Shown here piece after piece: positions 12,381 through 56,293 of a DNA stretch of 64,000 nt. This stretch comes from Gammaproteobacteria bacterium. Lineage in GTDB: Bacteria; Pseudomonadota; Gammaproteobacteria; UWMA-0217. The stretch is taken from assembly GCA_026981985.1 (NCBI GenBank), contig JALSHZ010000121.1, positions 17,168 through 81,167 on the forward strand, read 5' to 3'. Numbering within the stretch: position 1 is the first letter of the stretch; every line of letters starts with the position of its first letter. The notes beneath the pieces were generated by a model. It was given only the letters and a program-made list of their open reading frames with translations. It was not told the origin of the DNA and searched no databases. Made by a program: the position numbers and the translations under genes.

Positions 12381-12707
12381 ATGACCGACAAAACGATCGT
12401 ATTGACGACATGGCCTGATCTGGCTGGTGCTGAAGCGTTTGCAAGGCTGCTGGTCGAAAAGCGTCTCGCAGCCTGTATCAACGTCTTGCCGGAGATGGGT
12501 TCCATCTACCAATGGCAAGGCAAGCTTGAGCAGGGTGCAGAGCATCAGTTGATCATCAAGACCACGGTGTCACGCTATGCCGATGTCGAGGCGATGATTG
12601 TCGCGCATCACCCTTATGCGTTACCCGAAATACTATGTATCCCCGTCACTGCTGGGTTTCCCGGCTACCTGAGCTGGATTGAAGAGGCAACCCATGCTGA
12701 AAAATAG
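12381..12707 (+). CDS. cutA: Divalent-cation tolerance protein CutA
   Basis: A 108 aa CutA1 fold lying immediately upstream of dsbD, as in E. coli cutA-dipZ. Confidence 0.88.
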   Translation: MTDKTIVLTTWPDLAGAEAFARLLVEKRLAACINVLPEMGSIYQWQGKLEQGAEHQLIIKTTVSRYADVEAMIVAHHPYALPEILCIPVTAGFPGYLSWIEEATHAEK

Positions 12708-15054
12708 ATTGTCACACCTGTTGCTTGCCCTGCTGTTGTTCCCCACCGTATTGCTGGCGGTGAGTGAAGACGAGTTGCTTCACGCCGAAGAAGCATTCCG
12801 GTTCAATGCGGAGGAAAAGGCGCCAGGGATTATCGAGCTGAACTGGGAGGTTGCCGATGGTTACTACCTGTATCGCGATAAGTTCAAGTTCAAGGCTGAA
12901 AAAGGGCTACAGCTGTCTGACAAGCCAGTACTGCCAAAAGGCAAGGTGAAGAAAGACCCCAATTTCGGCGATGTCGAAATCCTGCGCGGCAAGATCAGCC
13001 TCGCCGTGCCCTATCGGTTCGAGCCGGGTGCCAAAGGGCCAGCGACGCTGACGGTAGGTTATCAGGGCTGCGCCGATCTGGGGGTGTGCTACCCACCGGA
13101 GAAAAAGACCATCGTCGTCGACAAGGCTGAAGTGTCGGCAGCGGCGGAGCCGGCACAGCGCGGGTCCGTGGCCGAGGCGCTGGCGGCGGCTGCCAAGCCC
13201 AGCCCTTTCGAACGCCTGAGTCGGCTGACCGGGGGCTTGGGTGGTGACGAAGCGCAGGAGCTTTTGCCGAATGACGAGGCCTTCGCGTTCTCTGCCGAGC
13301 TGGCTTCGCCCAATATCCTCATAGCACACTGGAACATCGCGCCGGGATACCACCTCTACAAAGACAAGATCAAGGCAGCGCTGGAATCCGCTACCGGTTT
13401 GAAGCTGGGTCCTGGTGACTTCCCGCAAGGGGAGATGGAGGACGACCTCGAAGGTGGTCTCACCGAAGTCTATCGTGGTCCGCTGACCATCGAGTTTCCG
13501 GTACTGGGCCTGCAGGCGACCCCACCCGAGAAGCTGCGGCTGAAAATCCGCTACCAGGGCTGTGCCGATCAGGGGGTCTGCTATCCGCCGGTGAAAAAAA
13601 CGCTCGACTTCGATGGCGTTCAGCTAGGCTTGCTCAGTGGTGCGATTGCAGGTGCAGACACGGACAGCGTTGCGGCTGCGGCTACACCATCTCCTGAGCC
13701 TGACAGTGTCGCCACGGGCATGGTGTCAGAGCAGGATGCGATTGCCGAGCAACTGGCCTCCGGCAATATGATATTGACGCTGATCGCCTTTTTCGGCTTT
13801 GGCCTGTTGCTCTCACTGACGCCCTGCGTCTTTCCGATGATTCCGATCCTGTCGGGGATAATCGTTGGTCAGGGCGAGACCATTACCACACGCCGCTCGT
13901 TTATGCTGTCGCTGGCCTATGTACTGGCCATGGCGGCGGTCTACGCCGTCGTTGGTGTCATCGCTGCGGTGACCGGCGCAAACTTGCAAACGGCGTTTCA
14001 GAATCCCTGGGTATTGATTACCTTTGCCGGCCTCTTTGTTGCATTGGCCCTGTCGCTTTTCGGCTTTTATGAGCTGCAGATGCCCGCGGCAATTCAGAGT
14101 CGGCTGACCGATGTCAGCAACAAGCAGCGTGGTGGCTCGCTCACCGGTGCTGCCATCATGGGTGTGCTGTCGGCGCTGATCGTCGGCCCCTGTGTTACCG
14201 CGCCATTGATGGGCGCGCTTGTCTACATCAGCCAGACCGGCGATGGTGTGCTCGGTGGCGCGGCGCTGTTCTTCATGGGGCTGGGCATGGGTGTGCCATT
14301 GCTGCTGCTAGGATTGTCGGCAGGCAGTCTGCTGCCCAAAGCCGGCGTCTGGATGGATGCGGTCAAGGCAGTGTTCGGCGTGATGATGCTGGGCGTTGCA
14401 ATCTGGTTTCTGGAGCGAGTGCTGCCGTCGGCAGTAACCATGTTCCTGTGGGCTGCGTTGCTGATTCTCTCTGGCGTCTATATGGGCGCTTTCCATGGCC
14501 ATGGCAAGGTGGGTCACAAACTGCTGCCGCTGTGGAAGGGCATGGGGCTGATGCTGGTGGCATGGGGCATGTTGATTCTGATCGGTATGGCAGCCGGGAA
14601 TAGCAATCCATTGCAACCGCTGCGTGGACTGGCGCTTGGTGGTATGTCGCAGGGTGTAATGGCGGCTGGCGTGGAAACCCGGCGTGGGCTGGATTTCCAG
14701 CCCATCAAGGGGGTCGATGGGCTTGATGCTGCGCTGGCGAAAGCTGCGGCGCAAAACAAGATGGTCATGCTCGATTTTTCTGCTGAGTGGTGCATCACCT
14801 GCAAGGAGCTGGAAGAGTTCACGTTTACCGATCCTGCGGTGCATCAGGCGCTGGATGACGTCTTGTTGTTTCGCGCGGATGTCACCGCCAACGATGCCGA
14901 GGACAAGGCCTTGCTGAAACGGTTTGGCATTATCGGCCCGCCGGCAATCCTGTTCTTTACACCAGACGGCAAGGAACTCAAGGGACATCGCGTCGTGGGC
15001 TTTATGAATGCCGGTGACTTCCGTGCCCACATTCTGAATGCGAAACAGCAATGA
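12694..15054 (+). CDS. dsbD: Thiol:disulfide interchange protein DsbD
   Basis: A signal peptide, a DsbD alpha domain, a transmembrane core with the CVFPMIP motif, and a C-terminal thioredoxin domain containing WCITC. Confidence 0.92.
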   Translation: MLKNRLSHLLLALLLFPTVLLAVSEDELLHAEEAFRFNAEEKAPGIIELNWEVADGYYLYRDKFKFKAEKGLQLSDKPVLPKGKVKKDPNFGDVEILRGKISLAVPYRFEPGAKGPATLTVGYQGCADLGVCYPPEKKTIVVDKAEVSAAAEPAQRGSVAEALAAAAKPSPFERLSRLTGGLGGDEAQELLPNDEAFAFSAELASPNILIAHWNIAPGYHLYKDKIKAALESATGLKLGPGDFPQGEMEDDLEGGLTEVYRGPLTIEFPVLGLQATPPEKLRLKIRYQGCADQGVCYPPVKKTLDFDGVQLGLLSGAIAGADTDSVAAAATPSPEPDSVATGMVSEQDAIAEQLASGNMILTLIAFFGFGLLLSLTPCVFPMIPILSGIIVGQGETITTRRSFMLSLAYVLAMAAVYAVVGVIAAVTGANLQTAFQNPWVLITFAGLFVALALSLFGFYELQMPAAIQSRLTDVSNKQRGGSLTGAAIMGVLSALIVGPCVTAPLMGALVYISQTGDGVLGGAALFFMGLGMGVPLLLLGLSAGSLLPKAGVWMDAVKAVFGVMMLGVAIWFLERVLPSAVTMFLWAALLILSGVYMGAFHGHGKVGHKLLPLWKGMGLMLVAWGMLILIGMAAGNSNPLQPLRGLALGGMSQGVMAAGVETRRGLDFQPIKGVDGLDAALAKAAAQNKMVMLDFSAEWCITCKELEEFTFTDPAVHQALDDVLLFRADVTANDAEDKALLKRFGIIGPPAILFFTPDGKELKGHRVVGFMNAGDFRAHILNAKQQ

Positions 15055-15572
15055 GTATGCGCCTGGCCGGATTCCTCTTTGCCCTGGCCTTGCTAGTCGG
15101 CACTGGGGTCTATCTGCTCGCCAAGGGCTCGGCGGAAGCCCCGGGCGACAATCGGCTGCGGCCAGCCTTTACGCTGCCTGATCTGGAGGGGCATGACCAT
15201 GACATCAGCGAATGGGATGGCAAAATCCTGCTGGTCAACTTCTGGGCAACCTGGTGCCCGCCCTGCCGCCATGAAATCCCGGATTTCATCGAAGTGCGCA
15301 GCAAGTATGCCGATCGGGGCTTTGAGATCGTTGGTGTCGCCATCGATGATGCCGACAGTGTTCGCGACTATGTGGATGTATTGGAAATCGACTACCCGAT
15401 TCTGTGGGGTGGGGCGAATGCTTCTGCAATAGCGCGTCAGTATGGCAATCGAAGCAATGCACTGCCGTACAGCGCCCTGATCGATCGCCAGGGCCGCATC
15501 CGCTTCTCCGGTGCGGGTAGACTGCCGCGCGATTCGCTGGAGAAGGCGGTGCTGTCGCTACTCGACGAATAA
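15051..15572 (+). CDS. TlpA/ResA-family thiol-disulfide oxidoreductase
   Basis: An N-terminal anchor and the redoxin motif WCPPC. It overlaps the dsbD stop codon. Confidence 0.85.
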   Translation: MSMRLAGFLFALALLVGTGVYLLAKGSAEAPGDNRLRPAFTLPDLEGHDHDISEWDGKILLVNFWATWCPPCRHEIPDFIEVRSKYADRGFEIVGVAIDDADSVRDYVDVLEIDYPILWGGANASAIARQYGNRSNALPYSALIDRQGRIRFSGAGRLPRDSLEKAVLSLLDE

Positions 15573-36516: not shown

Positions 36517-36710
36517 GGAAGCTGAAATGCTTTGGTATCAATCAGCACTATGACGGCGCTGGCGGTCAAATTCAAGCAGGAAGTCGGGCGGCTGTTCCAT
36601 GCGCCCTTCGCTCTCACCGCTACTATGGCAAACCCTATCAGGTTGTCCTCCAGACAAGACCTCGGCAGAGATTCGGGCTAGACTCAGCATATTTTTCAAG
36701 GGGATACCCA

Positions 36711-37231
36711 TGCTACTTCGACGTCCTGGTTCGACACGCCGTCGCTGGCTCGTGTTTCTGATTCAGGCGCTGGTTTTGTTGATGCTGTATCTGGGTTTGA
36801 AGCTGTGGATGCAGCGTGACATGGTGTCAGGGCAAGTCCCGGATCTGACGACGCATCTGGTCAGTGGTGAGCGCTTTTCACCGCATGACTATGCCGGTCG
36901 GGTCTGGTTATTGCATTTCTGGGCCGAATGGTGCGCGATCTGCGCTGCCGAGCAGGGGGCGATCTCATCGGTCGCTGCCAAGTGGCCGGTGGTGACCGTT
37001 GCGATGCAGTCCGGGGATCGGTTGGCTGTTGAAGATTATCTGCGTGACAACGGTCTTGATTGGCAGACGATTGTCGATCAGACCGGTGCCATATCGAAAC
37101 GGTTCGGTGTTTCCGCCGTGCCGGCTTCTTTTGTCATCGACAGCTCGGGGAAGATTCGTTTCCGCGAAATGGGGTATACCACCAGTTGGGGGTTGAGATT
37201 CAGGCTGTGGTTAGCCAGCCTGCTGGAATGA
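36711..37231 (+). CDS. TlpA-family thiol-disulfide oxidoreductase
   Basis: An N-terminal anchor, then WCAIC in a redoxin fold. A longer ORF starts at 36599. Confidence 0.8.
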
Positions 37232-39891: not shown

Positions 39892-41940
39892 ATGAATCAG
39901 CTCAGCAAAGAAACTAGCCCCTACCTTCTCCAGCATGCCGATAACCCGGTCGACTGGTATCCGTGGAACCCGGAAGCGCTGGCACTTGCCCGCAATGAGG
40001 ACAAGCCGATCCTGCTGTCGATTGGCTATTCCGCCTGCCACTGGTGTCATGTCATGGCCCACGAGTCGTTCGAGGATGCAGCAACGGCCGAACTGATGAA
40101 CCGCTATTTCGTCAACATCAAGGTCGATCGCGAGGAGCGTCCCGATCTCGACCGGATCTATCAGACGGCGCACTATCTGTTGACTCAGCGCAGCGGTGGT
40201 TGGCCGCTCACCGTGTTTCTGACGCCGGATGATCTGCTGCCATTCTACGCCGGCACCTATTTTCCGCCTGTAGCACGACACGGCCTGCCCGGATTTCGGG
40301 ATCTGCTGGTCGGTGTCGCCGATCTCTACCGCGAGCGGCACGATGAGGTGCGCCAGCAGGGCGCGGCGTTACAGCGGGCCTTGTCTCAGGCGGTCAATCA
40401 GCGTCACCCCAGTGTCGAGCTGGGGCCGCAGCTGCTGGCCAGGGCGGTTGAGGCACTCGCCGAGCGCTATGATGCCGACAATGGTGGTTTCGGCCAGGCG
40501 CCGAAGTTTCCCCATCCCACCACGCTGGCATTTTTGCTGCGTCGCTGGCTATTGTCGCGTGGCGGAGATGAGGTCGACCTGAAAGCGCTGGAAATGCTGG
40601 CCTATACGCTGAAGAAAATGGCGTTGGGTGGTGTCAACGATCAGATCGGTGGTGGTTTCTGTCGTTATTCGGTGGATGACTACTGGATGATTCCTCACTT
40701 TGAAAAGATGCTGTACGACAATGCCCAGTTGCTGCCGCTCTATGCCACCACAGCGATCACCACCGGCAGCGCTTTGTTCCGGCGTGTTGCAGCGGAAACA
40801 GGGCAGTGGGTGATGCGCGAAATGCAGTCCCCAGAAGGGGGGTATTTCTCCGCGCTGGATGCCGATAGCGAGGGAGAGGAGGGCAAGTTCTATGTCTGGA
40901 CGACCGACGAGGTAGCAGCACTGCTCAGTGAGGAGGAGTACCTCTATTTTGCACACCGCTATGGCTTGAACCGGCCGTCCAATTTTGAGGGCAAATGGTT
41001 GCCTCATGTCTATATGGAGTATGAGGTGCTGGAGAAACAGTTCTCGCGGCCGGAAAGCGAGATTCGTCAGATTATCGACATGGCCCGCAACAAACTGCTG
41101 GCAGCACGATCCGGGCGGGTCAGGCCGGGCAAGGACGAGAAAGTCCTGACTTCATGGAATGGGTTGATGATCTCCGGCATGGCGATTGCGGGGAGATTGC
41201 TGGGGCGCGAGGATTTCATCGACTCGGCGGAGCAGGCGTTGGCATTCATTCAGCGTGAGCTATGGGTTGACGGGCGTTTGCTGGCCACCAGCAAGGACGG
41301 ACATGCCCATCTGGCTGCCTATCTCGACGACTACGCCTTCCTGCTGGACGCGATCCTGGAGCTGCTGCAAGCACGCTGGAATGCGGCGCAACTGCGTTTC
41401 GCTGGCAAGCTCGCCGATGTCATGCTCAAACACTTCGAAGATCACGACAACGGTGGCTTCTTTTTCACCGCTGATGATCACGAGCGCCTGCTGGAACGGC
41501 TCAAGCCCTTCGCTGACGAGGCATTGCCAGCCGGCAATGCGGTGGCGGCCAAGGCGCTGGGCCGACTGGGCTATCTGCTGGGTGACAACCGCTATATCGA
41601 TGCATCTCAGCGTTGCATGGCGGCCGGTTCCGGGCTGGTCGCTCAGGCGCCGGTAGCACACTGCGGCATGCTGGCAGCGCTGCAAGAACAGATCGAGCCG
41701 CCCAGGATCATGGTGGTTCGAGGTGAGGGGCAGGCGCTGGAGGAGTGGGCAATGGCGCTTGCTGCGCATTCAGATCCACGCACACTCGGCTTTGCGATAC
41801 CGAATGATGCCAGTGATTTGCCGCCGGCGCTGGCGATTAAATCGGGACGTGACGAAGGCCCGGTTGCCTATCTGTGTGAAGGCATACAGTGTGCCGAACC
41901 GGTTGTTGAGCTGGCAGATTTCACGCAATTACTGGCTTGA
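39892..41940 (+). CDS. Thioredoxin-domain protein of the DUF255/YyaL family (N-terminal thioredoxin fold plus six-hairpin glycosidase-like domain)
   Basis: The CHWCH motif near the N-terminus and SPATA20-like architecture. Confidence 0.88.
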
Positions 41941-42124
41941 GTTGTGAGTGCGCGGTAGTCGATAGCTGCGGTTTTGGCAGAACATTACTCGTTCGTAATC
42001 TGTGCCGGGCTGGCTAGAAATTAATGTTCTATGTTATATACTCACTTTAATTGGTTGAAAATATTGCTTTTAAAGGTGCTGTAGCTGGTTGGTTGGCGGC
42101 GCCTTCTCACTGGGGAGTAGCGTC

Positions 42125-42565
42125 ATGAAATTTCTTGGAAGCCTGATGATCGCAGCATTTATCGTGATGATGCCGCAGTCGGCCATTAGCAAGATCAGGG
42201 TTGTCGATACCAGCAGCACCACACCGATGGACATCGTCTGGACCTCAAAGAACAGTACCGGCCAGGTTGTCGTACACCTCTATATGTATTGGGGCTTGCA
42301 GTGTCCGCATTGCCATGAGGCGATGCCGTTCATCAAGAAGATTGCGCGCAACTACCCCTGGGTGAAAGTGCATTTGCGCGAGATCAGTGAAAACCGCAAG
42401 AATCTGGTGTCGATGTACAACATGGCCGATGCGATCGGTGAGTCCAATGTAGCGATTCCGGCATTCTTCTACTGTGGTTATCTGTACACTGGCTGGGGTG
42501 ACGATGAGACCACGGGTGCATGGCTGGTGGATGAGCTGAAACAGTGCCGTGGTAATCCTATTTGA
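42125..42565 (+). CDS. Secreted thioredoxin-fold protein with a CPHC active site (DsbA-like motif)
   Basis: A signal peptide and CPHC. An AT-rich promoter region lies upstream. The gene is lower in GC. Confidence 0.65.
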   Translation: MKFLGSLMIAAFIVMMPQSAISKIRVVDTSSTTPMDIVWTSKNSTGQVVVHLYMYWGLQCPHCHEAMPFIKKIARNYPWVKVHLREISENRKNLVSMYNMADAIGESNVAIPAFFYCGYLYTGWGDDETTGAWLVDELKQCRGNPI

Positions 42566-42673: not shown

Positions 42674-43702
42674 ATGAATAAGATCCTTACCGTCACCGTC
42701 AATTACAAGACAGCCGAACTCACCATCAAGTGCATTGAATCCGTTGCCCGGGAGCGTGAGCTGAATGCCCCGGGGCTGGAGATGTGTGTTGTCGACAATG
42801 ACTCGCAAGATGGCTCGGTCGAGAAAATTGCCGCGGCGGTACGGGAAAACGGCTGGTCCGATTGGGTTGAGGTGCTTCCCGCGGGTTGCAATGGCGGATT
42901 CTCCTTCGGCAACAATGTGGCGATCCGCCCTGCGCTCGCCCGGCCACGTGATCAGCAGCCTGACTTCATCTGGTTGCTCAACCCTGATTCTGAAGTCGAA
43001 CCCGGTGCGGCCCTTGAGCTGATCCGGTTCATGCAGGAGCGTCCGCGGGTGGGCATGACGACAGGGCTTTCCTATGGTTTGGATGATGAGATTCAGACCG
43101 TGGCCTATCGCCACTTCAGTCCGCTGACCGAGTTTGTTGGCATGTCACAAATTGGTGTGCTTGAACGCCTGATGCCGTTCTCGAATGTCGTGCTGCCGTT
43201 GGGTGATGAGCCCAGCCAGGCGGTCTGGCTTTCCGGCGCCTCGCTGATGATCCGTCGCGAGGTGTTCGATGATACGGGCCTGATGGATGAAGACTATTTT
43301 CTCTACTTCGAGGAAACCGATCTGTGCATCCAGGCCGGGCGTGCCGGCTGGGAGATGTGGTATGTGCCAGCCAGCCGGGTGATGCATGTCGAAGGCGCTG
43401 CGACGGGTTTCACGCTCGAAGAGGTGGCCAAGCCGCGGCGTGCGCGGTACTGGTTTGAGTCGCGGCGTCGTTTCTTCCGCAAAAACTACGGCTTGCTGGT
43501 CGCCATGCTGGCGGATCTGGGCCATCTGAGCGGATATATGCTGTGGCGTCTGCGCCGCATGCTCCAGAACAAGCCGGATCTCGACCCGCCGTTCTACTTG
43601 CGCGACTTCGTTGCCAACAGCATTTTCGTGGCAGGATTCGGTTTGGGGCGCAGCAAGCTGGCTATTCCGCAATCTCCAGAACGGCTCGCTGGCCGGGCGT
43701 AA
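42674..43702 (+). CDS. Family 2 glycosyltransferase (paralog 1 of 3)
   Basis: A GT-A fold with VVDNDSQDGS (DXD), and a conserved C-terminus YWFESRRRFF shared with the two other copies. Confidence 0.85.
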   Translation: MNKILTVTVNYKTAELTIKCIESVARERELNAPGLEMCVVDNDSQDGSVEKIAAAVRENGWSDWVEVLPAGCNGGFSFGNNVAIRPALARPRDQQPDFIWLLNPDSEVEPGAALELIRFMQERPRVGMTTGLSYGLDDEIQTVAYRHFSPLTEFVGMSQIGVLERLMPFSNVVLPLGDEPSQAVWLSGASLMIRREVFDDTGLMDEDYFLYFEETDLCIQAGRAGWEMWYVPASRVMHVEGAATGFTLEEVAKPRRARYWFESRRRFFRKNYGLLVAMLADLGHLSGYMLWRLRRMLQNKPDLDPPFYLRDFVANSIFVAGFGLGRSKLAIPQSPERLAGRA

Positions 43703-44459
43703 TGTCCTTGTCGGTGGTGAAGCTGACGCTGAGTTCAAGTAGTGCGGGGTTGCTTGCGGCCGGCGCTATCTGCTGGATCATTCCCTTGAAGCGTTCATCA
43801 CCAACAGTGACGCCGATCGTTTGCCCCACGGTGAGTTGATCGCCCTGTTGCGGCGTGATTCGCGCGATTGCCAGCAAGTGGCCACCGCGGGCAATGCGTA
43901 GTATGGGGGTGATATCGCAACGATTGCTGACCGTTTCACCGGGGTGGACATTCTGCTCGGTGATCACGCCACTGAACGGGGCGCGGATCTGGCTGTATTC
44001 GAGCTGGATTTGCGCCAGCGCCAGTTCCGCGTTGGCGCGTGCAAGGTCGGCCTGAGCGCTGTCGTAACGGGCCTGGACGTCTTCCAGTGCGGTGGTCGAC
44101 AGTACCGTGCGATCGAACAGTTCCTCGGCGTGGCGTAACTCCCGCTCGGCAATGCGGAGCTGGCTGCTGAGGCGCTGAACCTCCGCTGCGGCGCGTTTCT
44201 TCTCTGCTTGCAGCGGGCGTGGGTCCAGTGTGGCAAGCAAGGCCCGTTTCTTCACCCGATCACCAACCGAGACCTTCACGCTGGCGATACGGCCGCTCAA
44301 CGGTGTCGACAGCGTGGCGGTCTCGGCCCAGCGCAGGGTTGCCGGCAGTTCTTCGGCCGTGGCGTCCTGGCTGATCGGCGCAAGCATCACCAGGAGTATT
44401 GAAAAACAACGGCTGAATTGACGTGATGCCTTGGTGATTCGGCTGTGTGATTGTGTCAT
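43662..44459 (-). CDS. Short HlyD-family periplasmic adaptor (membrane fusion protein)
   Basis: A signal peptide, a biotinyl/lipoyl-like domain, an alpha-hairpin and a beta-barrel domain. It overlaps the TolC-family gene by 4 bp. Confidence 0.8.
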   Translation of the reverse strand: MTQSHSRITKASRQFSRCFSILLVMLAPISQDATAEELPATLRWAETATLSTPLSGRIASVKVSVGDRVKKRALLATLDPRPLQAEKKRAAAEVQRLSSQLRIAERELRHAEELFDRTVLSTTALEDVQARYDSAQADLARANAELALAQIQLEYSQIRAPFSGVITEQNVHPGETVSNRCDITPILRIARGGHLLAIARITPQQGDQLTVGQTIGVTVGDERFKGMIQQIAPAASNPALLELSVSFTTDKDITPGQRAVLEIAE

Positions 44460-45799
44460 TGCGTGGCCTCGTTTGCGGCGGCTGCATCAGGTGGTGTGAG
44501 GGCGCTCCAGCTGGGGTTGCCGGTCAGAACAACCAGTGTTTCGCGTGCCAACGCCAGCTCAAAGCGGGTTTTTTCCGCAAACTGGCGGGCATCGCTCTGT
44601 TCAACCATGGCATCGCCCAGATCGGTCTTGATTTCCAGTTCATATTCGGCGCGGCTGCGATCCAGGTAAAGTTCACGGTAGTCTTCACGGATAGTCGCCT
44701 GTTTCAGTTGTAGCTGAAGTGTCGCGATCTGCTGCAATGTCGTCAGTAGCTTTTGCCTGATTTCGTATTCGGTCTGTGTCTTTTGTGCAGTGAGGCTGCG
44801 CCGTTTGGCAAGGCGGGCACTGATGTCGGCATCGACACGTCCACCCTGATACAAGGGCACATTGATGCCGAGAATGCCGCGCAATGGCGTGCGGCTGCCA
44901 TACTCCTGGCGATATTCATGGGCTTCCAGTTGTAGATAGAGTTCTGGGTAGCGTTGCGCACGAACGGCTTTTTGCTCGTCTTGCAAGGCCAGTAGCTGCG
45001 CATTCAGGGCCTGGAGCGCCGGATTGTTGGCCAGGCTGTCGTTGAGCAGATCTTCATATTCGGGCAGCGGGCTTGTCAGCCCGGGCAGTTGGGGTGGCTC
45101 CAGAGTGGCGGAGAGCTCATCTGGACGGTTCAGTGTCAGTGCTAGCTGGGCGCGGGTCTGGCGTTGTGCCGATTCCGCACGCTGGCGCTGTAGCAACTGC
45201 TGCTGATAGGCATCCTCCAGCTTGAGCAGCTCAAGCTCCGGGATTCTCCCAAGTTCCAGTTCATCCCTCGCTCGGTCGAGACGAACATAGGCAACGGCCA
45301 TGGCTTCGTTAGCGCTAGCGGCGGCGAGGTCGGCGAGCAGGACGTTGAAGTAGTCTTGCATCACTTGCTGGCGTAGCTGTAGTCGTGTCAGGGCCAGCGT
45401 CGCCCGGCTCGCGGCGGTTTCTTTGGAAGCTGCATCAATGCGGTGGCGGGTGCGCCCAAAATCATACAGGCGCTTGTATAAGGTGATGCTCGCTCGTGAG
45501 TCGTCGCGACTGTCGTAGGGTGGGCCGGCTATTGGCTTGATACGATGTAATTCTGCGGTCAAGTCGATGCGGGTATCGTCGCTTGCTGCAACCTGTGCGG
45601 CATCCGCTTCGCGGCTTGCCGTGTCGGCTTGTGCTCCAACGAGGCGGGGGTGGTTGTCATCGATCGAGGCCAGTGCTGCCGCCAGACTGAGTGGTTCGGG
45701 CAATGTTGCGGCTGGGGTTTCCATCTCGTCGCCAGCGCTAGTGTTTTGGCACCATAGCAGGCTGAGGAGAATCAGCTGAGGCAGTAACCGCTTGCTCAT
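44456..45799 (-). CDS. TolC-family outer-membrane efflux protein
   Basis: The signal peptide MSKRLLPQLILLSLLW and two OEP repeats. The ORF could extend to 46054. Confidence 0.85.
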   Translation of the reverse strand: MSKRLLPQLILLSLLWCQNTSAGDEMETPAATLPEPLSLAAALASIDDNHPRLVGAQADTASREADAAQVAASDDTRIDLTAELHRIKPIAGPPYDSRDDSRASITLYKRLYDFGRTRHRIDAASKETAASRATLALTRLQLRQQVMQDYFNVLLADLAAASANEAMAVAYVRLDRARDELELGRIPELELLKLEDAYQQQLLQRQRAESAQRQTRAQLALTLNRPDELSATLEPPQLPGLTSPLPEYEDLLNDSLANNPALQALNAQLLALQDEQKAVRAQRYPELYLQLEAHEYRQEYGSRTPLRGILGINVPLYQGGRVDADISARLAKRRSLTAQKTQTEYEIRQKLLTTLQQIATLQLQLKQATIREDYRELYLDRSRAEYELEIKTDLGDAMVEQSDARQFAEKTRFELALARETLVVLTGNPSWSALTPPDAAAANEATQ

Positions 45800-45812: not shown

Positions 45813-46352
45813 CTAGCGTTGTCGTTGGCTGAGCTTGAAGCGGGTAAAGCTGCCATTCTTGTAGTGGCCCTCTGCGACATAGCGGCCGAGCAACATGAAC
45901 TCCTTTGCGTCGCGACTTGCACCGATGAAACGTGCAGTCCGTTTGCCTTCGAGGTCGAAAAAGGCGATGACAGGCGTTGCTCTGACGCGGTGCTCTCTGC
46001 TGGCGAAGTCCTTCTGGGTCGTCTGTTTGCCCGCGAAATTGACCAGTTCCACATCGCCTTCGATATCGATACTGATGATGCGGAAGTGTTTGCGGTAGTA
46101 GTCCTGAACGTCGGGTTGGTTGAGCACCTCCCGTTTCATGCGGTGGCAGAACGGACAGTCGTCCATCTCGAAGAAGATCACGATGCCCTGTTTGCCTTCT
46201 TCTCGCGCTGTCTCCAACTCTTCGGAAAGGTCGCCAAAGGACTCCTGAAAGAAGTGGGTGGCAGGGTCACGGCCCGCAGCAGAAAGGCCGGGGATGGAGA
46301 GAGCGATGGCGAGTATCAGCAGAAAAAACAGCTTTGGGGTGTGTCTGTGCAT
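45813..46352 (-). CDS. Secreted thioredoxin-fold protein with a CPFC motif (SoxW/TlpA-like)
   Basis: A signal peptide and DDCPFCHRMK. It is the first gene of the TolC-family and adaptor operon. Confidence 0.7.
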   Translation of the reverse strand: MHRHTPKLFFLLILAIALSIPGLSAAGRDPATHFFQESFGDLSEELETAREEGKQGIVIFFEMDDCPFCHRMKREVLNQPDVQDYYRKHFRIISIDIEGDVELVNFAGKQTTQKDFASREHRVRATPVIAFFDLEGKRTARFIGASRDAKEFMLLGRYVAEGHYKNGSFTRFKLSQRQR

Positions 46353-46550
46353 GAATGTGGCGATGCTCCAGTGCGTTGTCGAGGCACTCAACAATACTGG
46401 ATCAAGGGGTTCGGGCGATCAAGCGACTTTTTCCCAGCCATTGCAGCGTGTTCCCTGACTGCCGGCCTGGCAACAAGGTATGACGTGGCTTGAAAAACCA
46501 CTCTCGTGGCGCCATGCTGAACAGACAATCTTCTTTTCTGCGAGACCCAC

Positions 46551-49008: not shown

Positions 49009-50965
<1,957 letters not shown>

Positions 50966-50995
50966 GCCCTTTTCCAACCAGGAAAAGCGTCAAGG

Positions 50996-51029
50996 AAAGC
51001 CCCGCCTCGTGCGGGGCTTTCCGCGTTTT
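50996..51029 (+). terminator. Rho-independent terminator after groEL
   Basis: aagccccgc-ctcgt-gcggggctt followed by a T run. Confidence 0.75.
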
Positions 51030-51164
51030 GGCATTGCCAAGATGATGAACATCAGGGGTGAAAAATGCCTCCCCCTTCCATTTTGTCTACTGCTCGACAC
51101 CCATACCCCCCCAGCCTTTGGTAGCATCAGGGAACCTTCCATGATCCGTACTCAGGAGTAGCGC

Positions 51165-52394
51165 GTGGCAACGACCCGTCAGAGCAGTTCCGCACAGCAA
51201 CCCTATGCCTGTGTCATCGGTGACTTGAGCATGGTGCGTGCGCTTGGGCGGGCCGGCATTCCGGTCGCGCTGGTGACGGACACGCTCGAGACTCGGGCGG
51301 TCCACTCCCGCTACAGCAAAGCGATCGTGCAGACGCCTAGCTGGGTCGATAACCCTGATGCCGCTGTCGATGCGCTCATCGAATGGGGCAAGCGGCAGGT
51401 GGAAGCGCCGATTCTGTTCTATCAGGGCGACCACGATCTGGTTGCGCTCTCCAAGGCGCGGGAGAGGTTGGAGCCGCACTTCAGGTTTATCTTCCCGCCG
51501 CAGGAACTTGTTGCCGATTTCAGCGACAAGTTGCGTTTTGCCGATCTGGTGGAGCAGCGAGACCTGCCGGTGCCACGCACGCTGACGCTGAAACAGCATT
51601 GCAATGTCACCAAATTGCTGGCCGATTGGGACGACTTTCCCTGTGTGTTCAAGCCGGCAATGCGCACCAATTGGTACGAAACGATTGGTTGCCTGCAAAA
51701 GGCGCTGCGTATCGAGTCTAGATCGGAGCTGGTTGATCTGATTCCAAAGATTGATGTGAGCAATGCCGCTTTTGTTCTCCAGGCTTCGATCGAAGGCGGT
51801 GAGGAAAATATTGTCAGCTATCACGCCTATATCCGGCCTGGCGGAGAAATCGTTGCCGAATTCACTGGCCAGAAGGTGCGCACCGGACCACGACTCTACG
51901 GAATCTCGTCTTGTGTGGAAATCACCGACGATGAGCGAGTGAGAAACCTTGGTCGCTCAGTGGTTGAGAAACTCGATTTTTCCGGCGTACTGAAGATCGA
52001 TTTCAAGATCGACAGCCGCAGCGGAGAACTTTTCATGCTGGAGATCAATCCTCGCTTCAACCTGTGGCATCATCCGGCTGCGGTGGCTGGCGTGAACATC
52101 CCGCAAGCTGTCTATCAGGACTGTATCGAAGAGGGCTCTGCCGAGATCTCGCGCACGGTTCGCCCTGGTGTTCGCTGGATCGAGCTTGGTCTCGATTTCA
52201 TGGCCTATCGTGAATACCATGCCGATGGGGATCTTCCGCTGCTGACCTGGCTGCGTGAATTGGCCACGGCCGATGTCAATGAGGGGTTCTGTTGGCGAGA
52301 TCCGAAACCTGGCATATTGGGCATTGCCTGCCGCATCAAGCGCAATTTCCACAAACGGGTGTTGAGACGCCAAAACGTTGCTGAGTGTGGCTGA
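51165..52394 (+). CDS. ATP-grasp domain ligase (carboxylate-amine ligase family). GTG start.
   Basis: An ATP-grasp core with ELFMLEINPRFN. It lies 8 bp upstream of the metallophosphoesterase gene. Confidence 0.8.
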   Translation: MATTRQSSSAQQPYACVIGDLSMVRALGRAGIPVALVTDTLETRAVHSRYSKAIVQTPSWVDNPDAAVDALIEWGKRQVEAPILFYQGDHDLVALSKARERLEPHFRFIFPPQELVADFSDKLRFADLVEQRDLPVPRTLTLKQHCNVTKLLADWDDFPCVFKPAMRTNWYETIGCLQKALRIESRSELVDLIPKIDVSNAAFVLQASIEGGEENIVSYHAYIRPGGEIVAEFTGQKVRTGPRLYGISSCVEITDDERVRNLGRSVVEKLDFSGVLKIDFKIDSRSGELFMLEINPRFNLWHHPAAVAGVNIPQAVYQDCIEEGSAEISRTVRPGVRWIELGLDFMAYREYHADGDLPLLTWLRELATADVNEGFCWRDPKPGILGIACRIKRNFHKRVLRRQNVAECG

Positions 52395-52401
52395 GGTGCC
52401 G

Positions 52402-53226
52402 ATGCAGATTGCGCTGATCGCCGATATCCATGCCAATCTTGAAGCGCTCGACGCTGTTCTTGAGGATATTGAACGCACGGCGCCCGGGGCGATGATCATC
52501 TGCGCTGGCGATATCGTTGGTTATGGACCAGACCCGGAAGCCTGTATCACCCGCCTGCGTGAACGCGATGTGCCATGCGTCATGGGAAATCATGAAGAGA
52601 TGCTGCTGGGCAAGCGCGATTTTTCGCGCTGTGTCTATGCTGGTGTCAAGTCGGCTCTCTGGGCGAGGCGGCGAGTCAGCGCAGAGGCGAAGTCATTTCT
52701 TGCCGCGCTGCCGGCGAGCCGCGAGGTCGCTCCAGGTATTGTCGTCTGTCACGGCGACCTGGAGAGCGCCGACATCTACATCAGCGACGCGAAACGGGGC
52801 AGTGCGGTGCTGGCACAGTTGGGCGAGCAATGGCCTGATGCCAAAATACTGGTCTGTGGTCATACCCACCACGCCGCGATCTATACCGAGGCATCAGGAT
52901 TCGATCTCGTTGCTGTTCCGGATCAGCGTCCGCTCCCGAATGCAGAACCCTGTATCGTCAATCCGGGGGCGGTTGGTCAATCCCGTGATACTCGCGCCGT
53001 AGCGCGTTATGCGATTGTTGATCGCGAGTCGAATTCGATTGCCTTTCACGAGCTGGAATATGACCACGCCACGACCATCCGCAAGCTCCGCCGAGCAGGT
53101 CTGGTGCCCCAAGTGGTGCTACGGCGCCCGGAAGGAAAAATCGCGCAGCGTATCGAATGGTACAAACTGCGCTGGGCCCGCTACTGGGGTGAGAGGGACA
53201 ATGCCAAAATGCGGGAAGTCTCGTAG
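52402..53226 (+). CDS. Metallophosphoesterase (calcineurin-like, YfcE/MJ0936 type)
   Basis: MQIALIADIHANLEALDAV..GDIVGYGP..GNHE..GHTH motifs. Confidence 0.85.
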   Translation: MQIALIADIHANLEALDAVLEDIERTAPGAMIICAGDIVGYGPDPEACITRLRERDVPCVMGNHEEMLLGKRDFSRCVYAGVKSALWARRRVSAEAKSFLAALPASREVAPGIVVCHGDLESADIYISDAKRGSAVLAQLGEQWPDAKILVCGHTHHAAIYTEASGFDLVAVPDQRPLPNAEPCIVNPGAVGQSRDTRAVARYAIVDRESNSIAFHELEYDHATTIRKLRRAGLVPQVVLRRPEGKIAQRIEWYKLRWARYWGERDNAKMREVS

Positions 53227-53278
53227 GCAGGGTTTGTTGGGCACGTCATCACTGTTTTAACATCCCGCCATCTCCGCG

Positions 53279-54262
53279 TCAGGTCTTACGCTTGTCGAGC
53301 GAGAACCCCTTGACGAAAACACTGTGCCGGAAAAAATCCGTCAGATAGGCTGGCGGATCGAGGTTTTGCTTGCGTTGGATGAACTGACGTATCAGCCAGA
53401 GTGAATAGCCAGCCATGTGCAGGGCGTCAGCCAGCGCCGCATAGGCAGCGCCGTGATTCTTGATGAAGTAGCGGCGGCGGGATTCGAACCAGTAGCCGGG
53501 CCTTCGTGGTTGCCGGGCGCTGGTGTGCCGAAAACCTGTCGAGGCGCCAATCACGTGCAGGATTCTGCTCTCCGGCACATACCAAAGCTCCCAGCCTTTG
53601 CGCTGCGCCTGGAGACAGAAGTCGCTCTCCTCGAAGTAGAGGAAGTAATCTTCGTCCATCAGGCCGATGGTGTCGAAAACCTCGCGCCGAATCATCAGTG
53701 AGGTGCCGGATAGCCACTCCGCCAGGTGTGGTTGGGGTTCCGGCGTGACTGGAATTACCGTTTTTGGCAGCAGGCGATCGACGATCCCGAGCCGCAGGTT
53801 CGAAAAGAATTCACTCAGCGCAGTGAAGTGGCGGAAGGCCATGGCTTTTTGCTCGCCTTCGGGATCGATATAGCGGCTGGTGGCCAGCCCGGCTTTGGGA
53901 TGCGCTTCCATGAAATCCAGCAAGGCCTTGCCTGCACCCTCTAGCGATTCCGCATCAGGGTTGAGCAACCAGAAGTAGTCGGGCGGCTGGTCAGCTGTGA
54001 GTGCCGGGCGGATGGCGATATTGTTGCCATAGGAAAAACCGCCATTGCGTTCGGCCGCGACGACCTCAGCCCAAGACTGCCAGCCATTCTCTTTGATAGC
54101 GTTTCTGATCGTGTCGACAGACCCATCGCCGGACTGATTGTCGACCACAACCATTCGGGTTTGCTCGGGAAGGTTGCGCAGGTCGGCGGCAATGGATGCC
54201 AGGCACTTGATGGTCAGTGCGGCAGTGCGGTAGTTGACGGTGACAATGAGCAGTTTGGGCAT
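53279..54262 (-). CDS. Family 2 glycosyltransferase (paralog 2 of 3)
   Basis: LLIVTVNYRTAALTIKCL..VVDNQSGDGS..YWFESRRRYF. A longer ORF runs to 54289. Confidence 0.85.
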   Translation of the reverse strand: MPKLLIVTVNYRTAALTIKCLASIAADLRNLPEQTRMVVVDNQSGDGSVDTIRNAIKENGWQSWAEVVAAERNGGFSYGNNIAIRPALTADQPPDYFWLLNPDAESLEGAGKALLDFMEAHPKAGLATSRYIDPEGEQKAMAFRHFTALSEFFSNLRLGIVDRLLPKTVIPVTPEPQPHLAEWLSGTSLMIRREVFDTIGLMDEDYFLYFEESDFCLQAQRKGWELWYVPESRILHVIGASTGFRHTSARQPRRPGYWFESRRRYFIKNHGAAYAALADALHMAGYSLWLIRQFIQRKQNLDPPAYLTDFFRHSVFVKGFSLDKRKT

Positions 54263-54481
54263 GGGGGTTGGGCCATTTGGGATTGGCATTGTTGTCTCTG
54301 GCCGCGATGGTAGTAGAGATGCTTGAAAAGATCACGGAACCCATCCGGTTTCCGTGGCGGATGCACTCTTTTGGTTGGTTTGGCCCAGTTGATCTCATGA
54401 TCAGATGAACAGAGTTTCACAGTTGGCCACTCAAGACTGTGTTAGCTTGGTGTTTGGAGGAAGTTGCACAGATATTGACCG

Positions 54482-55519
54482 ATGAGTGAGAAGCCGATTC
54501 AACTGGCGATTGTAACCGTCAACTACAAAACGCCGGACCTGACCAATAGATGTATCGATGCGGTCTTGAACGATGCGCAAGCATTACCGCCCTTTCGCAT
54601 GTTTGTGGTCGATAACAACTCCGGGGACGGGTCGCCGGAGGTGATTGGCCAACATATTGACGCGCGTGACGCAGGTGATTGCGTCGAACTGCTGGTGGCG
54701 CCAGTGAATGGTGGCTACGCCTATGGCAACAATGTTGCGTTGCGCGCCATTCGCGAGCGTGGCTTGGATCCGGCTTATATCTGGTTCCTCAATCCCGATA
54801 CCGAGGTCGAGCTGGGTGCCGGCAAGGCGCTGATCGACTTTCTCGATGCGCATCCACAGGCAGGTATGGCGGGCAGTGGGCTGATCGACGCTGACGGTAC
54901 GCCCCAGATCTCCGCGTTTCGCTTCCACGCGCCTCTGAATGAATTTCTCGAATACATGCAGCTGGGCATTCTGGATCGGCTGTTCAGCAACTATCAGGTA
55001 ACGATGCCGGTCGCGTCAGTGCCGCATCGTGCCGACTGGGTGACCGGCGCCTCGTTCATGATCACGTCGCGGTGCATCGACAGCGTAGGGCTGATGGATG
55101 AAGGCTACTTTCTCTATTATGAAGATGTCGACTATGGTTTTGCGGCAGCCCGGGCCGGATGGGAGGTTTGGACAGTGCCGCAGAGTCGGGTGTTCCACGT
55201 CTGTGGTGCGGCAACGGGTGTGCTCGATTTCAATATGAAACAGCCGCGCCGGCCGGATTACTGGTTCGAATCACGCCGCCGCTTTTTTCTGAAGAACTAC
55301 GGTAAGACGACGCTGCTGCTGGCCGATATTGCCCTGCTGACGGGTTTCTCCCTGTGGCGCCTGAGGCGCCTGATTCAGCGTAAACCCGATTTCGACTCGC
55401 CTGGATTCCTTGGTGATGCATTCCGCCATTCCGTGTTCGCGAAGGGCTTCCGTCTACAGACACGTGCGTTGCCATCGGAAGTCGAGCTGCCGCTGGCGGA
55501 GCAGGATTCCCCATCCTGA
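54482..55519 (+). CDS. Family 2 glycosyltransferase (paralog 3 of 3)
   Basis: LAIVTVNYKTPDLTNRCI..VVDNNSGDGS..YWFESRRRFF. Confidence 0.85.
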   Translation: MSEKPIQLAIVTVNYKTPDLTNRCIDAVLNDAQALPPFRMFVVDNNSGDGSPEVIGQHIDARDAGDCVELLVAPVNGGYAYGNNVALRAIRERGLDPAYIWFLNPDTEVELGAGKALIDFLDAHPQAGMAGSGLIDADGTPQISAFRFHAPLNEFLEYMQLGILDRLFSNYQVTMPVASVPHRADWVTGASFMITSRCIDSVGLMDEGYFLYYEDVDYGFAAARAGWEVWTVPQSRVFHVCGAATGVLDFNMKQPRRPDYWFESRRRFFLKNYGKTTLLLADIALLTGFSLWRLRRLIQRKPDFDSPGFLGDAFRHSVFAKGFRLQTRALPSEVELPLAEQDSPS

Positions 55520-55525
55520 ACGCGA

Positions 55526-56293
55526 TTACTGTCGGCGCAGAAACACCCATTCATCACCTTGTGACTGCTCTTCCGAAAAGTGGTAACCGGCGCTATCGAA
55601 CGCCTTGATGGCTTCCGGATCGGTCAGGCGGTGCTCGGCGATATAGCGGGTCATCATGCCGCGTGCTTTCTTCGCATAGAAGCTGATCATCTTGTACTGC
55701 CCGTTTTTCCAGTCCTTGAACTGCGGCGTGATGATTCGGCCATCGAGATCGTTCTTTCTTACTGCCTTGAAATATTCGTTCGACGCGAGGTTGACCAGTA
55801 CGCCGTCATCCGTGGCCAGCAGTGCGTTGAGCGCATCGGTGATCTTGCTGCCCCAGAATTCATAGAGGTTGTTGCCGCGCGGATTGGGAATCTTACGCCC
55901 CATTTCGAGGCGGTAGGGCTGCATCAAATCCAGCGGACGCAGCAAGCCATACAGGCCGGAGAGAATCCGCAAGTGATCCTGGAGGAATTCGAGGCTTGCT
56001 TCATCGAGATGGTACGCATCGATGCCATCGTAGACATCCCCTTTGAAAGCGAACACCGCCGGGCGGGCATGGTCCGGCGTGAATGGCGTGTGCCACTCGG
56101 CGAAACGCTCGTGGTTGAGTTCCGCGATCTTCATGCTGACCTTCATGATTTCGGCGATATCCAGCGCCGAGTATTGCCGCATGGTGTCGATCAGCTCGGC
56201 GGAATCGTCGAGAAAATCGGGGATCGTGTAGTGATCGATTGGCAGAGGGGATTCGAGATCCAGCGTCTTGGCGGGGGAAATAACAATGATCAT
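55526..56293 (-). CDS. yaaA: Peroxide stress protein YaaA (UPF0246/DUF328)
   Basis: MIIVISPAKTLDLESP... Confidence 0.92.
   Translation of the reverse strand: MIIVISPAKTLDLESPLPIDHYTIPDFLDDSAELIDTMRQYSALDIAEIMKVSMKIAELNHERFAEWHTPFTPDHARPAVFAFKGDVYDGIDAYHLDEASLEFLQDHLRILSGLYGLLRPLDLMQPYRLEMGRKIPNPRGNNLYEFWGSKITDALNALLATDDGVLVNLASNEYFKAVRKNDLDGRIITPQFKDWKNGQYKMISFYAKKARGMMTRYIAEHRLTDPEAIKAFDSAGYHFSEEQSQGDEWVFLRRQ

Follow-up and report, generated by a model that had tools for sequence, protein, structure and literature searches.

We analysed a 64,000-nucleotide stretch (the window, always meant at its full length) from a Gammaproteobacteria bacterium whose closest public relatives are uncultured Thiotrichales metagenome-assembled genomes (MAGs). 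Our subject is the region between groESL and yaaA, which encodes a ligase of the ATP-grasp superfamily, a metallophosphoesterase (MPE) and two family-2 glycosyltransferases (GT2s). We refer to the ATP-grasp and MPE genes together as the cassette. The features of the region are the following.

49316-50965: groEL, the upstream neighbour of the putative island
50994-51032, plus strand: intrinsic terminator of groEL, a 12-bp GC-rich hairpin followed by CGCGUUUUGG, with a U-rich tail; upstream edge of the putative island
51165-52394, plus strand: ATP-grasp carboxylate–amine ligase, 409 amino acids (Pfam and AlphaFold2 model), first gene of the cassette
52402-53226, plus strand: calcineurin-like MPE, 274 amino acids (PF12850, PF00149), second gene of the cassette
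53279-54289, minus strand: GT2a, GT-A family-2 glycosyltransferase, 336 amino acids (PF00535), convergent with the cassette
54482-55519, plus strand: GT2b, paralogous GT2, 345 amino acids (PF00535), divergent from GT2a
55526-56293, minus strand: yaaA (Pfam/NCBIfam), beyond GT2b

The original prediction, made from the sequence alone, had described a glycan or peptide modification module behind the groEL terminator. Its open reading frames (ORFs) for the ATP-grasp ligase, the MPE, GT2a, GT2b and a more distant third paralog, GT2c, are all there. The terminator is a real hairpin as well: region 50966-51035 folds with -35.7 kcal/mol (z = -4.3) and none of 200 shuffled sequences was equally stable.

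The first cassette protein is a member of the ATP-grasp superfamily. Its AlphaFold2 (AF2) model (pLDDT 89.8) shows the canonical three-domain ATP-grasp fold and the characteristic K, E, D, E-x-N and R ligands of ATP and Mg2+ are present; these residues (K163, E213, D279, E293, N295 and R297) show no variation across 28 homologs. The Pfam scan (E <= 0.01) returned only ATP-grasp_3 and ATPgrasp_Ter (PF15632), the latter covering just residues 230-325 and, with 28.6 bits, lying slightly below its cut-off of 29.1. No TupA-like ATP-grasp match was found in the same scan and no Ter-operon genes were found by Pfam in the window. In Foldseek, PurK came first (E = 3e-18), and biotin carboxylase and L-amino-acid ligases, among them BL00235 and RizA, followed at about 1e-16 (range 1e-18 to 1e-15, TM about 0.6). 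A sequence search of the PDB retrieved 2pn1 and Ddl/CPS only, with weak E-values and no information on the substrate. The AF2 models of the ATP-grasp ligase and GT2a likewise had only generic superfamily neighbours at TM of about 0.6, which do not point to a substrate. None of the NCBIfam equivalogs reached its cut-off (Ddl 22.4 against 245.65, RimK 22.0 against 143.4 and PurK 21.4 against 326 bits), and by this measure the protein is no recognisable housekeeping enzyme. The label 'D-aspartate ligase' carried by many homologs is an annotation of the Joint Genome Institute (JGI) only, and no D-aspartate ligase model was among the matches. The family is large, with 1,724 clusters at 50% identity (E <= 1e-30, HMMER scan of 1.84 billion cluster representatives), and one homolog, P0121, is 96% identical to the window protein.

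The MPE scored 68.8 bits with PF12850 (cut-off 27) and 56.4 bits with PF00149 (cut-off 21.5). All five metal-binding motifs are complete in the translation: DIH (DxH), GDIVGYG (GD), GNHE, CHGD (H) and GHTH. Its closest solved relative is PDB 3rqz (E = 2.5e-26 over residues 9-250 of the 282-amino-acid translation), deposited as 'Metallophosphoesterase' without an assigned function; the window protein differs from it by an additional basic C-terminal tail of about 30 residues. NCBIfam equivalogs again stayed below their cut-offs (YfcE 35.3 against 56.25, ApaH 26.0 against 176 and PrpA/B 33.6 against 326 bits). Judging from the sequence, ATG 52402 is the most likely start of the MPE, giving 274 amino acids, with a TTG at 52378 as the alternative start, and an independent gene call in a related locus (L001) also gives a protein of 274 amino acids. 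Its GAGG ribosome-binding site overlaps the ATP-grasp stop codon, with a 7-nt gap to ATG 52402. The translational coupling of the two genes claimed originally thus holds in that they are tightly coupled, while an overlap of the reading frames is improbable.

The ATP-grasp–MPE pair is the conserved unit of the region. A scan for the ATP-grasp ligase with one genome per species gave 104 relatives, from which 80 loci were kept for neighbourhood counts. The MPE follows directly downstream in 39 of these 80 loci; of the 11 loci that reach 43% identity or more, 10 have it there. The arrangement occurs in Actinomycetota, Planctomycetota, Myxococcota, Burkholderiales and Alphaproteobacteria. In every locus for which genes have been called, the ATP-grasp and MPE genes overlap or almost touch, and in P0336 they form a single ATP-grasp–metallophosphoesterase polypeptide. 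In the literature library that we searched, no paper on the pair or on this ATP-grasp family was found.

The ligase has further recurrent partners. In 26 of the 80 loci (for example L026 8717-11206, L033 8714-11203, L075 8316-10802 and L059 191-2662), the ATP-grasp domain and a PF13480 acyltransferase are joined in frame in one protein of about 830 amino acids; another 15 loci have the acyltransferase within 3 kb, so that it is fused or adjacent in 41 of 80. The fusions came to light when an iterated PF13480 hidden Markov model (HMM) turned out to be contaminated by ATP-grasp sequence, and they were then confirmed cleanly with Pfam; P0433 has the two domains in reverse order. Naive clustering of neighbouring ORFs was abandoned because of shadow ORFs in loci of high GC content. 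Within the ATP-grasp set (L005-L089), 16 loci have a polysaccharide deacetylase and 28 have GT4 transferases. Two multidomain proteins join these functions in one chain, GT4–ATP-grasp–GT4 in P0323 and ATP-grasp–deacetylase–ATP-grasp–GT4 in P0392. Further neighbours are a GT2 of 638 amino acids, a GH44 protein and a weak match to a Wzz/GNVR chain-length domain, which stays below the Pfam cut-offs. On the complete plasmid of Azospirillum ramasamyi, an overlapping ATP-grasp/MPE pair is surrounded by genes for an oligosaccharide flippase, WbqC, two DegT aminotransferases, two GT4s, a Gfo/Idh/MocA oxidoreductase, a nucleotide-sugar dehydrogenase and an epimerase/dehydratase. By its gene content, this appears to be an O-antigen-like locus for amino- and uronic-acid sugars. 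Together, the fusions and neighbours of the ATP-grasp ligase consistently suggest glycan tailoring.

One subgroup of the family has a different architecture. Here the ATP-grasp domain is fused to TubC_N and a thioesterase, and the genes sit between polyketide synthase (PKS) and nonribosomal peptide synthetase (NRPS) genes and many glycosyltransferases. With 53-56% identity, the subgroup is as close to the window protein as any homolog from outside Thiotrichales. Two loci, L009 78-21950 (ERZ25039541 contig_20164) and L016, hold a large hybrid cluster around such a fusion and an MPE. The order is fatty-acyl-AMP ligase, PKS, thioesterase, NRPS, TubC_N–thioesterase–ATP-grasp, MPE and a 535-amino-acid protein without a family, and the cluster ends with many GT2, GT4, PF13480 and deacetylase genes. 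Its product may be a glycolipopeptide or an acylated polysaccharide.

The cassette also behaves as a unit between closely related genomes. A contig from a sister strain (L095) is 97-99% identical to the window over 53.4-62 kb, a part that includes GT2a, GT2b, yaaA, COQ7 and the trp genes, and 91-95% identical over groEL. Between them, over window positions 51.1-53.25 kb (1100-3200 in L095), which is exactly the ATP-grasp–MPE cassette, the identity is only 66-79%, and the boundary at the MPE/GT2a junction is sharp. In the MAG L010, which belongs to the same clade, the ATP-grasp and MPE proteins are 78% and 79% identical to those of the window, and GT2a and GT2b are 98% and 96% identical. The sharp drop means that the cassette was replaced as a unit between otherwise near-identical genomes, and since the replacement involves the cassette only, the evolutionary module is the cassette and not the GT2s. 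Such unit replacement between near-identical genomes is typical of genes for surface structures.

A 16-nt inverted repeat, CCGC(G/A)TTTTGGCATTG, is found at 51021-51036 (plus strand) and 53199-53214 (minus strand). These are its only two copies in the window; they flank the cassette exactly and match the boundaries of the mosaic. The repeat is missing from L095 and from the more distant relative L094 and is therefore probably due to chance or specific to this allele. An RNA or mobile-element explanation was dropped, since the Rfam and tRNA scans of the window found only one tRNA-Phe at 3.2 kb and since the flanking repeat is not shared with L095 or L094. Horizontal transfer finds no support in base composition; the GC content of the island, 0.56-0.58, is the same as in the remaining window. 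An anti-phage defence system was also rejected after a negative PADLOC scan, in which the sole match, the MPE against PDC-S10 with 16.9 bits, was non-significant.

The GT2s of the window are paralogs, as the original prediction had stated. PF00535 scored 38.3 bits for GT2a, 47.5 for GT2b and 37.1 for GT2c (cut-off 23.3). GT2a is 48% identical to GT2b and 53-54% to GT2c, and GT2b and GT2c share 47.5%; the motifs VTVNY(K/R)T..LT..C near the N-terminus and YWFESRRR(F/Y)F near the C-terminus are invariant among the three. The AF2 model of GT2a (pLDDT 89.7) combines a GT-A core with a long, basic helix at the C-terminus (residues 265-304), which we infer from the model to be a membrane-interface element. 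In Foldseek, ppGalNAc-T2 and GlfT2, both GT-A enzymes, matched it best (E about 1e-13). Among 32 family members there is no variation at N19, Y20, D112, D212, E220 and D223, and hardly any at D50 and D55. A PDB sequence search with GT2a alone found nothing, and the family profile matched only the N-terminal GT-A part of TagF, TarP-like and other glycosyltransferases, with no information on the substrate.

The description of this subfamily as uncommon and of its C-terminal motif as distinctive did not stand. GT2a has more than 4,400 homologs, many of which exceed 50% identity and belong to cyanobacteria (Moorena, Leptolyngbya, Phormidium), Planctomycetes and Thiotrichales, and GT2c has 2,243 matches at E <= 1e-60; the YWFxSRRR motif is conserved family-wide and is a family signature rather than a special feature of the three window proteins. 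Whether they are rhamnosyltransferases was asked by subfamily assignment with HMMs, and no curated subfamily matched: TIGR01556 gave 43.1, 35.0 and 25.9 bits against a cut-off of 200.55, and the NCBIfam models HpsE, HpsN and MftF all gave 32 bits or less against cut-offs of 300, 425 and 280. The proteins resemble the WbbL-type/COG1216 rhamnosyltransferases described by TIGR01556 in the GT-A fold, the VVDN..DGS, NPD and DED-type acceptor-loop motifs, the length of about 330 amino acids and the occurrence in Wzx/Wzy loci, and JGI labels many of their homologs WbbL. They differ in their own C-terminal YWFxSRRR helix and in missing the TIGR01556 cut-off. Unlike in WbbL-type loci, no other polysaccharide genes accompany the GT2s of the window; Pfam annotation of all larger ORFs of the 64 kb found no flippase, polymerase, chain-length regulator or nucleotide-sugar genes beside them. 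They thus lie outside any O-antigen or core-lipopolysaccharide locus.

Elsewhere the GT2 family is found in polysaccharide loci, for example beside a Wzx-type flippase in Moorena and a Wzy-type polymerase in Phycisphaerales. We sampled 59 metagenome loci with usable flanks among the matches listed, and in 32 of them a WcaB/EpsC-like acetyltransferase and/or a second GT2 lies within 3 kb; P0045 and P0106 are GT2–hexapeptide fusions. Neither of these usual partners is in the window. This appears to be a large polysaccharide GT2 family of which the window GT2s are ordinary members. In a recurrent three-gene module, a GT2 of this subfamily is accompanied by a WcaB/EpsC-like hexapeptide acetyltransferase and by another GT2 of 328-330 amino acids (L093 8001-10547, L178 4804-7279, L092 8001-10494); in Thiotrichales relatives the module is an isolated island surrounded by housekeeping genes. 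Beside P0009, the Thiotrichales ortholog of GT2a, we also noted a 706-amino-acid protein in which a Gfo/Idh/MocA oxidoreductase and an NAD-dependent epimerase/dehydratase are fused, and the second GT2 comes next (L002 11164-13284); the fusion recurs in L114 and L142.

GT2a, GT2b and GT2c each belong to an orthologous group of their own, which makes them old paralogs and not a recent expansion. This argues against three copies serving one pathway, as had been proposed. GT2b has orthologs in P0250 (72% identity) and P0277 (61%), and the latter lies in a GT2–hexapeptide acetyltransferase–GT2 island without an ATP-grasp gene (L178). Beside the cassette, GT2b occurs only in the species group of the window, and its membership in the module is therefore uncertain.

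GT2a is the paralog that seems to travel with the cassette. In GCA_054012415.1 (L094) the trio of ATP-grasp, MPE and convergent GT2 is located between flavodoxin/gatCAB and adk, a wholly different set of housekeeping genes, with 70% identity to the window for the ATP-grasp ligase and 74% for the GT2, and GT2b is missing. The trio is also present in L095, L010 and L001. A metagenome contig of 64-68% GC, L133 (WNFT01013772.1, 1-8011), encodes a GT2 of the window subfamily followed by an ATP-grasp ligase, 55% identical to that of the window, and an MPE, all in the same direction. It also holds a convergent PF13480 acyltransferase, a carrier-protein/thioesterase ORF and the usual second GT2, so that both sets of partners are joined there; the carrier-protein ORF begins with about 600 residues that match nothing in Pfam. 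These two loci and the ATP-grasp–glycosyltransferase fusions suggest the link between GT2a and the cassette.

From this we derive an explanation to which we give an even chance: the cassette and the convergent GT2a form a compact glycan-tailoring island between groESL and yaaA, and GT2c with its neighbouring genes is a separate block. The ATP-grasp and MPE genes would be co-transcribed, and GT2b would be a lineage-specific addition. Of the module proposed originally, glycan modification remains the best reading for the ATP-grasp ligase, the MPE and GT2a, whereas GT2c and the outer-membrane exporter genes do not belong to it.

In such an island, GT2a, as an inverting GT-A enzyme held at the inner membrane face by its basic C-terminal helix, would transfer a sugar onto a surface glycan that is lipid-linked or still nascent. 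The ATP-grasp ligase would convert a carboxylate into an acyl-phosphate and join it to an amine that is on, or destined for, the glycan. The partners could be the carboxylate of a uronic acid and an amino compound, or an acid and the nitrogen of an amino sugar. The MPE would then strip a phosphate from the ligated substituent or from its precursor. We infer which glycan serves as acceptor, which carboxylate and amine are joined, what the MPE does and in which order the steps follow.

The closest working analogue is the capsule of Campylobacter jejuni HS:2. There the TupA-like ATP-grasp domain of Cj1438 amidates glucuronic acid with serinol phosphate or ethanolamine phosphate, the HAD phosphatase Cj1435 removes the phosphate after amidation, and the GT2 domains of Cj1438 and Cj1434, which are paralogs of each other, extend only the amidated sugar (PMC11800379). 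In both systems a GT2, or paralogous GT2s, an ATP-grasp carboxylate–amine ligase and a phosphohydrolase are encoded together. In Campylobacter, however, the GT2 is fused to a TupA-like ligase and the phosphatase is of the HAD type, whereas the window has separate genes, an ATP-grasp ligase that is not TupA-like by Pfam and a calcineurin-like MPE; genes supplying uronic acid or amino-alcohol phosphates are not found near the island.

The commonest partners of the window's ATP-grasp family after the MPE are PF13480 acyltransferases and deacetylases, which form pairs of the type found in the Caulobacter holdfast locus; the window itself has neither. We take HfsK to be the PF13480 acyltransferase of the HfsK/HfsH pair, and the HfsH model gave only a weak match. 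The holdfast system is not known to contain an ATP-grasp ligase or MPE. That PF13480 proteins and deacetylases are the commonest partners implies chemistry on the amino groups of sugars. With these frequent partners and the aminotransferases in view, the amino group of a sugar is no less likely to be acylated than a uronic acid is to be amidated.

Several observations weigh against the glycan-tailoring island. No acceptor pathway is visible in the window: Pfam annotation and tblastn found no nucleotide-sugar, flippase, polymerase, acetyltransferase or deacetylase genes in the 64 kb, in agreement with the original remark that nucleotide-sugar and Wzx/Wzy genes are missing, and there is no PF13480 gene either. 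Since the ligase is not TupA-like and the MPE is not of the HAD type, the Campylobacter parallel is an analogy only; the island may work like that system and is not a member of it. A nucleotide-sugar dehydrogenase, the source of uronic acids, is close to the pair in 3 loci only, which makes a uronamide just one option among several. The TubC_N–thioesterase fusions and the PKS/NRPS neighbours show that some members of the family act on acids derived from carrier proteins and not necessarily on sugars. GT2a is convergent with the cassette and so does not belong to the same operon. Last, 79 of the 80 ATP-grasp loci lack this GT2 subfamily, the exception being L010, and only 1 of the 59 GT2 metagenome loci, among the matches listed, has the ATP-grasp pair.

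These last counts lead to the alternative that survives best, namely that the cassette and the GT2s are functionally unrelated and just happen to occupy the same site next to groESL, one that tolerates insertions. The convergent orientation, the missing usual partners of the GT2s and the different histories seen in the sister strain, where the cassette was exchanged while GT2a and GT2b stayed nearly identical, all fit such chance neighbours. Adjacency of this GT2 subfamily and the ATP-grasp pair is rare outside the clade of the window; what was confirmed is the trio in L094 and the adjacency in L133. It is these two loci that speak against chance, the first because the trio is intact after relocation and the second because it joins the three genes independently and co-directionally. 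The strong tie of the ATP-grasp family to glycosyltransferases, which extends to single polypeptides, points the same way. We regard chance association as rather unlikely, and if it is correct the region is an ordinary one.

Less probable still is a peptide, peptidoglycan or natural-product ligase, in which the ATP-grasp enzyme would add an amino acid to a stem peptide, a cross-bridge or an acid released from a carrier, with the MPE in a regulatory role and the GT2s as bystanders. Such a function would agree with the 'D-aspartate ligase' labels, with the structural neighbours BL00235 and RizA, with the many TubC_N–thioesterase fusions beside PKS and NRPS genes, and with the PF13480 and polysaccharide deacetylase partners, whose families also modify peptidoglycan; PF13480 acyltransferases are presumably FemAB-related. 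The Ddl and RimK scores are far from their cut-offs (22 against 246 and 22 against 143 bits), and no PKS, NRPS, carrier-protein or mur genes were found by Pfam in the window. The GT4 fusions, the flippase neighbours and the weak, sub-threshold Wzz/GNVR match instead point to secreted polysaccharides. For these reasons we consider this function improbable.

A wider proposal can also be made, which we put forward tentatively and consider possible but doubtful. The ATP-grasp–MPE pair would be an undescribed, phylum-spanning system (about 1,700 clusters at 50% identity) that installs amide-linked substituents on surface glycans via a phosphorylated intermediate and that evolved independently of Cj1438C/Cj1435. 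In this lineage it would be cut down to three genes, a minimal island that recombines and has a GT2 of its own, and its alleles would give different decorations. Antigenicity, phage adsorption and the properties of biofilms are shaped by amide-linked groups on surface polysaccharides, for which few installing enzymes are known. The proposal, if true, would annotate well over 1,000 gene families now called 'ATP-grasp domain protein' or 'metallophosphoesterase'. It would also add a second, non-homologous ligate-then-dephosphorylate solution to that of Campylobacter capsules, and the allelic replacement of the cassette would be an example of surface-glycan diversification.

The third paralog lies outside the island, next to a thioredoxin-led operon for an outer-membrane factor (OMF) and a short membrane fusion protein (MFP).

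42674-43702, plus strand: GT2c, third GT2 paralog, 342 amino acids (PF00535)
43662-44459, minus strand: short MFP (TIGR01730 137.9 bits, cut-off 94.9)
44456-45799 (ORF to 46054), minus strand: OMF (PF02321 129 bits)
45813-46394, minus strand: thioredoxin-like gene, which leads the OMF/MFP operon

The OMF most likely starts at 45799 (447 amino acids), a start that leaves no overlap with the upstream thioredoxin-like gene. GT2c has a 75% identical ortholog, P0035, and lies in a conserved block found in L176 and L177 with the order TamB, NadA, AhpC, acyl-CoA ligase, DUF255, thioredoxin, GT2c, reversed MFP, reversed OMF, reversed thioredoxin and FxsA. The operon of thioredoxin-like protein, OMF and short MFP (248-265 amino acids) recurs there (L176 and L177, 11000-13610), and in none of the three operons (window, L176, L177) is there an ABC, RND or MFS gene for an inner-membrane transporter. 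As it stands, the operon is neither a tripartite efflux system nor a type I secretion system. GT2c is convergent with the MFP gene and so is not co-transcribed with it. In GCA_054012415.1 the GT2c/OMF/MFP block (L177) and the trio (L094) are on different contigs. GT2c and the pump-less operon, with a synteny block of their own, thus make a separate unit, probably an independent, vertically conserved redox/efflux block outside the island pathway.

This leaves very little room for the full pathway of the original prediction, in which three GT2s, the ATP-grasp ligase, the MPE and the OMF/adaptor genes together make and export a glycan or a glycosylated, amino-acid-ligated small molecule. In its favour, the genes span no more than 13 kb, the GT2s are of one subfamily and some relatives of the ligase are encoded in clusters of PKS/NRPS and glycosyltransferase genes, possible sources of glycolipopeptides (L009, L133), but the separate synteny of the GT2c block, its gene orientation and missing pump, and the age of the three orthologous groups, with GT2b absent from the L094 trio, make it very unlikely. 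What the prediction observed was confirmed, and its interpretation is partly supported.

By Pfam annotation of the larger ORFs, the rest of the window contains housekeeping genes only, including those for AsmA, MutY, molybdenum-cofactor synthesis, DsbD, AccBC, PurH, TamAB, NadA, CsrA, GroESL, COQ7, Crp and TrpCDGE. Genes for thiol-disulfide oxidoreductases are unusually frequent in the window (12679-15572, 36599-37231, 39892-42565 and 45813-46394). They encode DsbD, two AhpC/redoxin-like proteins, a DUF255/YyaL-like thioredoxin protein and two small thioredoxin-like proteins, and the last two flank GT2c and the OMF/MFP operon.

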